DNA of 64,000 nucleotides, from the NCBI GenBank assembly GCA_951406725.2, contig OX597830.1:992001-1056000 (forward strand). Reading direction: 5' to 3'. Below, piece by piece: positions 46,258-48,059 of this stretch (positions within the stretch are counted from its first letter, which is position 1; each line of letters starts with the position of its first letter). A model generated the notes under the pieces. It worked only from the letters and a program-made list of their open reading frames with translations, had not been told where the DNA came from and made no database searches. A program made the translations under genes and the position numbers. The DNA comes from Octopus vulgaris (lineage: Eukaryota).

Positions 46258-47250
46258 TATTGTGTTCAAAATTTATGAAAACATTGCCAAGTATGCACAA
46301 CAGGAAACTGCTTCCTCATAGACCTGGGGTTAAAGAACAAAACCCAACAGAATATACTGTTACTCTGGTTTTAATTCTATCAATTATGAGTCAGGTTTTA
46401 GACAATAATCAATTAACTCAAATTAAACATTAGTCGTATATAAACCATGATGTGTGTAGAGATAGATGTATCAAAGTGTATTGTCGTGTCTGTGTCGTTA
46501 CGAGTTTAGTGTGAAACTGGATTGGTAGGTTCGATCTCATTGTAGGTCAACTTACATAAGGTATTTTCATCTATGTCCTCAGAGTCTAATAACGTCACAA
46601 TGAAATATCTGCGGGGGAAACAGTACTAAAATTATGCGTGTACATGAGGGTATTTGTGTGTGTGTGTGTGGGCATTTGTGTGTGTATGTGTTAGCAAGGC
46701 ATATGGATAAATCAGCGTATGGCGTTCTTTTCATACAAGTTACGTCCAGAATTAAGCATTCAATAGAGACCAATAAGTGAAACATATATGTGTATATATA
46801 TATATATATATATATGTATATATATATATATATATATATATATATGTGTATATATATATATATATATGTATATATATATATAGATCAATAAATGGTAGGG
46901 TTGTGTTGGAGAAATGATAAGCAAAGAAAAATTGTAAAAATGCAGAATGCTAAATTGAAAGAAAATTTGAATGAAAATGGGTGTATGAAAAGTTTTTGAA
47001 AAATTGATAAAATATATAAATATATATATATACATAACAATAATAAATCTCTGAACGAGATATAAACAGTAACCGCTCGACAACGTAAGGGGTATTAGCC
47101 ATCTGAATGTGGCTAGCCACTGGGGGGGGGGGTACCTGATGCTTTTAGCCCCAGACGATCAACGTCACCAGAAGGACTTTAGACACTATCTCAGTGCCCT
47201 TGTGTTATTTGCAAAGGGAGGTCATCCTCCCTCGAAGACCCGAGTACTAC

Positions 47251-47293
47251 ATACGGACTATAGTTTCAAGGCAATTGCCTCTCGTCAACGCAT
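47251..47293 (-). ncRNA. Type I hammerhead (U3-G8), copy 1
   Basis: Minus strand reads ATGCG-TTGACGA-GAGGC(AATT)GCCTT-GAAA-CTATAG-TC-CGTAT. Confidence 0.8.
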
Positions 47294-47604
47294 AGTAAGC
47301 ACCGGTCTTCGATGAAGGAGTCCCCTTGCAAATAATATATAATGTTTTCCACATAACCACTGTCACTGATGTAGAAAAACTGTCTGAAAACAATAATAAA
47401 TCTCTGAACGAGATATAAACAGTAACCGCTCGACAACGTAAGGGGTATTAGCCATCTGAATGTGGCTAGCCACTGGGGGGGGGGTGTTACTGATGCTTTT
47501 AGCCCCAGGCGATCAACGTCACCAGAAGGACTTTAGACACTATCTCAGTGCCCTTGTGTTATTTGCAAAGAGAGGTCATCCTCCCTCGAAGACCCGAGTA
47601 CTAC

Positions 47605-47647
47605 ATACGGACTATAGTTTCAAGGTAATTGCCTCTCGTCAACGCAT
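47605..47647 (-). ncRNA. Type I hammerhead (U3-G8), copy 2
   Basis: Same motif; predicted cut 354 nt from copy 1. Confidence 0.8.
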
Positions 47648-47848
47648 CAGTAACACCCCCCGCCCAGTGGCTAGCCACATTCAGATGGCTAATACCCCTT
47701 ACGTTGTCGAGCGGTTACTGTTTAAATCTCGTTTAGAGATTTATTATTGTTTTCAGACAGTTTTTCTACATCAGTGACAGTGGTTACTGTGAAAAAACAT
47801 TATATATTATTTGCAAGGGGACTCCTTCATCGAAGACCGGTGCTTACC

Positions 47849-47891
47849 ATGCGTTGACGAGAGGCAATGACCTTGAAACTATAGTCCGTAT
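47849..47891 (+). ncRNA. Type I hammerhead (U3-G8), copy 3, opposite strand
   Basis: ATGCG-TTGACGA-GAGG(CAATGA)CCTT-GAAA-CTATAG-TC-CGTAT. Confidence 0.8.
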
Positions 47892-48059
47892 GTAGTACTC
47901 GGGTCTTCGAGGGAGGATGACCTCCCTTTGCAAATAACACAAGGGCACTGAGATAGTGTCTAAAGTCCTTCTGGTGACGTTGATCGCCTGGGGCTAAAAG
48001 CATCAGTAACACCCCCCCCAGTGGCTAGCCACATTCAGATGGCTAATACCCCTTACGTT

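Follow-up and report, generated by a model that had tools for sequence, protein, structure and literature searches.

What occupies positions 47036-48059 of the Octopus vulgaris stretch analyzed here (64,000 nucleotides of contig OX597830.1, assembly GCA_951406725.2; hereafter the window), where a short non-coding unit is repeated head to tail and again in reverse, and how did it get there? The locus touches on a wider question, namely which enzyme moves animal retrozymes and whether a circular RNA is what is copied, for which the prior arguments in the published passages drawn on here are co-occurrence and pLTR similarity. The answer that we favor, with reasonable confidence, is that the unit belongs to a dispersed, non-coding repeat with a predicted hammerhead ribozyme (HHR), likely copied in trans by the reverse transcriptase (RT)/GIY-YIG endonuclease of a Penelope-like element (PLE), probably from a circular RNA monomer to be released by the predicted hammerhead.

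The insertion is made of two arms of a 353-354-nt unit in opposite orientation, 612 nt and 416 nt long, flanked by (TA)n tracts. Its parts, in window coordinates, are:

47012..47035, no strand: left flank, a degenerate (TA)n target.
47036..47647, minus strand: long-end arm, 1.7 units in HHR sense, with its 3′ end at fixed site E353 (47036) and 5′-truncated at 47647.
47036..47081, minus strand: 46-nt 'tail' between both fixed 3′ ends.
47205..47335, minus strand: predicted rod extending HHR helix I, unit 1.
47242..47302, minus strand: type I hammerhead copy 1 (helices Ib, Ia and II; 2-bp helix III with palindromic loop), predicted cut 47256/47255.
47256..47609, minus strand: predicted 354-nt monomer between two minus-strand cut sites.
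47596..47647, minus strand: hammerhead copy 2, its 5′ side truncated by the inversion, predicted cut 47610/47609.
47644..47647, no strand: 4-nt microhomology GCAT, the head-to-head join of the two 5′-truncated arms.
47644..48059, plus strand: short-end arm, 1.2 units in HHR sense, with its 3′ end at fixed site E307 (48059) and without the tail.
47839..47899, plus strand: type I hammerhead copy 3, predicted cut 47886/47887.
48060..48242, no strand: right flank, a (TA)n target.

An earlier sequence-only reading of the locus had described near-identical non-coding units, and the alignments agree with it: direct repeats are 97-100% identical at 353/354-nt spacing (units 1 and 2 match in 253 of 260 aligned columns), the inverted arms are 93-99% complementary, and the unit, with a GC content of 45%, has no ATG ORF longer than 58 aa. 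The minus-strand cuts and 354-nt monomer that it predicted are exact in position, as GUC ends lie at 47256 and 47610 on that strand, which places the predicted cuts at 47256/47255 and 47610/47609 with a 354-nt piece between them. The unit was also said to be highly structured; folded as a circle, the monomer has a predicted MFE of -111.4 kcal/mol, against -89.2 ± 6.1 kcal/mol in 60 dinucleotide shuffles (z -3.6), and the fold contains the rod and both hairpins that had been named. The inversion does sit at a 4-nt microhomology. Its placement right at the end of hammerhead copy 2 holds as adjacency, since the junction cuts the 5′ side of that copy and leaves 5 nt of helix I, but this closeness is incidental because the position of the junction varies freely among copies. 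Release of a monomer from the locus itself, on the other hand, finds no support in the predicted fold of a whole-insertion transcript, a hairpin of ~400 bp in which none of the three HHRs (0/3) forms its own helix I. As all three would be buried, the insertion is probably a dead end and not a source of monomer; source loci are probably direct tandems elsewhere. Two neighbors deserve mention: a 170-nt near-perfect hairpin at 48240-48409 (z -24), right of the (TA)n tract, which may be a MITE-like or mini palindromic PLE insertion, and an abundant SINE-like repeat in two copies at 45970-46260, of a kind that we take to be typical of octopus genomes.

Each unit had been credited with one HHR. Rfam gave no hit at gathering score in the window and no hammerhead family at E-values up to 5, and the motif also escaped a strict pattern scan for HHRs across the window, so that the call rests on comparative evidence; by that evidence a type I fold is supported at the predicted cut sites. 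The core departs from the consensus at two wobbles, U3.G8 and G10.1.U11.1. Counted over 24 rows from subfamilies A, B and C, the positions of the four helices (Ib, Ia, II, III), of the 3-8 core pair and of the self-pairs in loop III make up 478 cells, of which 94.1% are paired; slid controls reach at most 53.8%. Both sides have changed in 7 of 20 HHR pairs, although the 24 rows fall into about four groups and the covariation thus amounts to about four events at the level of subfamilies, as opposed to 24 independent changes. The 8-mer of helix III is palindromic in 19 of the 24 rows, with loops that differ among the three subfamilies A, B and C; subfamily D has a shortened helix III and keeps the palindrome in 32 of 37 hits (overlapping loci included). 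At the 12 core positions of subfamily A, 3 of 749 cells are off the majority compared with 441 of 18,682 at other non-CpG sites, a contrast that is weak because the copies were picked by similarity. Retention of the helices and of the helix III palindrome by compensatory change over 20-35% divergence indicates that the predicted HHR is under selection.

Some features of the ribozyme bear on how well it would cleave. G8 and U11.1 are fixed in 46/46 subfamily A copies, and these core wobbles may weaken cleavage in that subfamily. The HHR-ready fold lies 2.4-4.1 kcal/mol above the MFE. Newt and viroid HHRs are described as cleaving dimerically via an elongated helix III (PMC6155905), and axolotl retrozymes are described as doing likewise (PMC7229834). 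The octopus subfamilies also differ in two pairs. Helix II opens with G-C in B1 and D and with G.U in A, and B2 and C have a mismatched C.A there (alignment A2, columns 78 and 92); core pair 3-8 varies by subfamily between C-G, U-A and U.G. These variants offer a natural series for testing core tolerance.

The family extends far beyond the window. In the assembly searched (2.80 Gb, 227 contigs), the unit gave 129 matches among the 40 candidates scored of 2,633, with full-length copies 91-98% identical and spread over many contigs. The exact 35-nt HHR core occurs 211 times in the genome, and a 26-nt piece near the unit end 564 times. For a 15-nt end motif the count is 3,051, compared with 10 for a control, which rules out a single-locus artefact. 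Thirty loci with the end motif were sampled and all 30 match the non-coding retrozyme lineage, a few of them over short stretches only. Judged by these motif counts, the genome would hold about three thousand related copies, and the description of the unit as a retrozyme-like non-coding family applies genome-wide. Arrays of 1-10 units are found on many contigs, and the insertion maps show no LTR pairs. Subfamilies B, C and D were reached by following divergent neighbors; the four are mutually 66-81% identical, and the longest ATG ORF in their units, read as circles on both strands, is 35-70 aa. Copies of subfamily A diverge by 2.7% within the same arm, 3.2% between opposite arms and 5.5% between insertions, and the lineage is thus older than the 'young' one that had been proposed. 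A far more decayed relative (L065:740-1040) suggests that still older subfamilies exist. Within subfamily A, shared variants are fewest in the 46-nt tail (rate 0.1%, versus 1.2-3.7% elsewhere). Assembled contigs from four presumed-RNA runs match the unit in parts, a kind of match that cannot show level, ends, strand or circles.

Two further observations concern how arrays grow. One is a direct array of 10.2 subfamily B units (L101:4260-7880), ~99% homogeneous, which starts at the short fixed end and in which variant units recur alternately; taken as a candidate proof of rolling-circle copying it is ambiguous, as recurring variant units are not expected from one monomer circle. Amplification at the DNA level also occurs: at L134 and G000:C1:94322211-94326393, whole insertions are duplicated with their flanks, at periods of ~1.6 and ~1.4 kb.

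Size, a rod-like fold and the presence of an HHR are also what a viroid-like RNA replicon would have, multiplying by RNA-to-RNA rolling circle and occasionally endogenised. Hammerhead viroids and viroid-like replicons, however, carry a ribozyme in both polarities, whereas no HHR core was found on the antisense strand of the octopus unit. The 'both polarities' of the sequence-only reading are thus right for the DNA and wrong for the ribozyme. Together with thousands of genomic copies, successive subfamilies and retrotransposon ends, the confinement of the HHR to one strand makes such a replicon hardly credible, and 'viroid-like' applies in no more than a loose sense, with no sign of RNA-RNA replication.

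The ends of the copies bear on the enzyme. Among 130 outer 3′ ends from 81 insertions, 58 lie at unit position ~307, 57 at ~353 and 15 elsewhere, so that 115 fall at two fixed sites, E307 and E353, which lie downstream of the HHR cut at distances of 174 and 220 nt. Since similarity-ranked sets could favor fixed ends, two sets chosen in other ways were checked, and fixed-site ends make up 36 of 39 in a subset taken by position along contig 1 (internal pattern) and 50 of 56 in 40 further loci selected by exact HHR core alone. Copies with permuted start points had been anticipated; the 3′ ends are fixed instead. Inverted insertions mostly have one end of each kind (35 of 49 in the main set, 13 of 16 in the core-selected set) and hardly ever two of the same (1 of 49 and 0 of 16), and the two ends are spaced 39-51 nt in 36 of the 49, the sites themselves being ~46 nt apart. 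The 5′ ends are scattered, with the two arms overlapping by at least 1 nt at 29 of 43 junctions, 22 of these by 1-3 nt. A TA-like flank is present on at least one side of 39 of the 81 insertions, compared with 3.7% of random 12-mers in the window. Of the 42 remaining, non-TA sites, 17 show a target-site duplication (TSD) that is 7 nt or longer, compared with 5% of mismatched flank pairs. Within single TSD/TA sites, arms of several units occur on one side of the inversion or the other.

The insertions thus display hallmarks of EN+ PLEs: an inverted 5′-truncated arm, a one-sided tail and an AT-rich target. An inverted 5′-truncated copy with a one-sided tail is the arrangement described for PLEs (Arkhipova et al., 2013; Craig et al., 2021), and a PLE protein has been reported to cut and extend both strands of AT-rich DNA, with cDNA starting at two internal RNA sites that delimit the PLE tail (Frangieh et al., 2024; PMC11167929). 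On the genomic sequence, two fixed 3′ ends ~46 nt apart combined with one-tailed inverted insertions constitute the PLE 'tail' signature, and because the copies end at two fixed points as PLEs do, they were likely copied by a PLE reverse transcriptase. PLE-style mobilization, for which the inversion had been the argument, now has the much stronger evidence of fixed two-site ends.

PLE-type ends would be expected, too, of truncated PLE copies, and the units could in principle be orphan pLTR remnants of a coding PLE, made tandem by DNA-level unequal crossover, a route discussed by Li et al. (2026). Distant pLTR ancestry is plausible, and the duplications of insertions plus flank described above demonstrate that DNA-level expansion exists in this family. 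Nevertheless, none of the 30 sampled tail-motif loci, all of the non-coding lineage, runs into a PLE ORF; the unit itself recurs upstream of the tail in all four subfamilies; arms of several units occur to either side of the inversion within single target sites; and the PLE hammerheads seen in the same genome are of minimal size and sit no more than ~40-120 nt from the end, versus 174-220 nt in the retrozyme unit. An ORF for RT plus GIY-YIG is absent from the retrozyme unit and from the sampled tail-motif loci. The unit was not seen as the pLTR of a coding PLE at any of the loci examined: local alignment of 16 PLE 3′ regions to it scored no higher than 33, where a true relative scored 227; no unit-like sequence was present in 30 GIY-YIG loci or 20 further loci, in a partner search that scored 150 of 6,136 GIY-YIG candidates and had Poseidon- and Naiad-type PLEs outside its set; and a model search of 23 loci (21 PLE, 2 subfamily D controls) plus the window returned retrozyme copies only. 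We therefore consider a pLTR origin of this kind very unlikely. Two candidate links to PLEs were discarded: the PLE at L068 ends at 4980, and the fragment 600 nt beyond is a separate subfamily C insertion, and a 37-nt match in L198 proved spurious.

Coding PLEs are nonetheless at hand in the genome. Two very young Neptune-type families (L061-L066, L068, L136-L164) are both sited in (TA)n; the first has many open 781-aa frames with an upstream 479-aa frame, and copies of the second are 99-100% identical. Intact or near-identical, such young PLEs are possible donors. The window itself contains a coding Neptune-type PLE (54119-60484) that is flanked by (TA)n and whose arms are inverted, one of them bearing a ~40-nt tail. 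This element is near-full-length and frameshifted (ORFs 54831-56036, 55976-57775 and 57700-58305), shares 58% identity with the 781-aa family across 564 aa, and carries a minimal hammerhead whose helix III palindrome is that of retrozyme subfamily D. Elsewhere in the window, decayed PLE RT and GIY-YIG fragments lie at 7949-9666 (minus strand), and a fragmented LINE with APE-like and RT frames at 60418-63439 (plus strand).

If a PLE made the copies, what was its template? A linear self-cleaved monomer would pile 5′ ends at the HHR cut, and this candidate was rejected, as no pile-up was found: of 116 arms, 93 run past one cut site or more, and 4 of 135 5′ ends lie near the cut where about 5 are expected. 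In the position-chosen subset, 24 arms pass the cut, one stops at it and 11 stop earlier; the core-selected set gave 0 of 59 at the cut and was set aside as biased by selection for whole cores. Since arms read through the cut and 5′ ends are unenriched there, the template was likely a re-ligated circle or an uncut multimer. The circle is favored by selection on the HHR, by the lower divergence of units within an insertion given above, and by lineage markers, which are shared in 132 of 199 comparisons within insertions and in 1,646 of 15,757 between insertions; against it, marker concordance is incomplete, the discordances within insertions (67 of 199) being mostly single transitions.

The second possibility keeps the same PLE-driven insertion and takes the template to be an uncut linear multimer from long master arrays, the HHR trimming or nearly silent and no circle formed. 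Read-through of cut sites is equally expected from it, long direct arrays exist (10 units at L101, with its recurring variants), and the subfamily A core has its wobbles. Moreover, uncut RNA was the main substrate of an anole PLE in vitro, where HHR activity was dispensable (PMC11167929), a preference that fits a linear template, and in Xenopus 8 of 9 retrozyme dimers failed to cleave (Li et al., 2026; bioRxiv 10.64898/2026.07.22.740005). Two points speak against this multimer. The HHR helices and helix III palindrome have been kept by compensatory change, and 5′-truncating copying of linear RNA only shortens arrays, so that, as we infer, their length could not be restored except through circles or DNA-level expansion. 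On balance we judge the uncut multimer unlikely, and rate the chance that a circle served as template as somewhat better than even.

On the reading that we favor, a tandem transcript would self-cleave, probably in a double-hammerhead form that its palindromic helix III allows, after which a ligase of the host would close the 354-nt monomer into a circle. The genomic ends and published PLE biochemistry suggest that the PLE protein would then cut both strands of AT-rich DNA and that cDNA would be primed internally at two fixed sites 46 nt apart. What follows can be read in the DNA: each arm extends 5′-ward, often past one or more HHR cut sites, and stops variably, and the two arms are joined head to head at short microhomologies into an inverted, one-tailed insertion in (TA)n or with a TSD.

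A lone circle with one HHR would cut itself poorly. A bolder form of the proposal, which we offer tentatively and at less than even confidence, is that the family is a long-lived, ribozyme-made RNA circle that parasitizes PLE RT, is not a pLTR, has a conserved internal priming signal of its own, with two sites, and a dimer-only hammerhead, and is primed from both broken DNA ends, from which the inverted, one-tailed insertions would result; with such a hammerhead, multimers would be cut and the circle would survive. If true, it would provide direct evidence, from a genome, for the copying of circular RNA by PLE machinery, together with a 354-nt template for reconstitution. Because a PLE-specific two-site tail is found on a non-coding tandem unit, in four subfamilies, a 354-nt RNA and intact PLE ORFs from the same genome would suffice to put the question of enzyme and template to the test, and the fixed two-site ends predict exact cDNA start points.

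Among known systems, the closest are the animal non-LTR retrozymes of coral, mussel and axolotl (Cervera and de la Pena, 2020; PMC7229834), which, in the passages describing them, share with the octopus family tandem non-coding units of 150-450 bp with one type I HHR each, a GC content below 50%, TSDs of more than 4 bp, a short helix III with palindromic loop, and coexistence with PLEs; at the level of sequence, the octopus unit has the features by which that class is recognized. Circular RNA was shown for those retrozymes; in the octopus family a circle is predicted from the genomic copies. Their mobilization by PLEs was proposed from HHR type, tandem form and co-occurrence, in passages that do not bring up fixed ends, tails or inverted arms. 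Vertebrate retrozymes are likewise described as non-autonomous and PLE-dependent, on the evidence of pLTR homology and co-distribution, with local DNA expansion discussed for tandems (Li, Clavereau and Pollet, 2026); in the octopus family no pLTR homology was found, and the geometry points to retrotransposition of multimers. EN+ PLEs (Neptune, Poseidon PAc; PMC11167929, PMC8557442, PMC3846280) have in common with it, as far as those accounts describe them, an inverted 5′-truncated arm, a tail on one end, AT or (TA)n targets, variable TSDs, microhomology joins and an HHR upstream of the priming sites, and differ from the retrozyme, which has no ORF, a full-size HHR with extended helix I, head-to-tail units and a tail of ~46 instead of 30-40 nt. 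Non-autonomous Chlamys elements such as MRC1 (PMC8557442) are also non-coding PLE parasites with multicopy head-to-tail insertions; they are described as generally resembling an autonomous partner at the 3′ end, and no such partner was found for the octopus family.

The literature searched gave no description of a cephalopod family of this kind, which Repbase/Dfam libraries or paper supplements may nevertheless contain, and the portion of the 2026 Octopus repeat annotation drawn on (PMC13282606) makes no mention of 'ribozyme'. As the class is already known, the surprise is moderate. By its sequence, the element behaves as a non-autonomous PLE and is neither a coding PLE nor a viroid; compared with the systems above, it represents a new family of a known class, the animal non-LTR retrozymes, with unusually direct genomic evidence for mobilization by PLEs.
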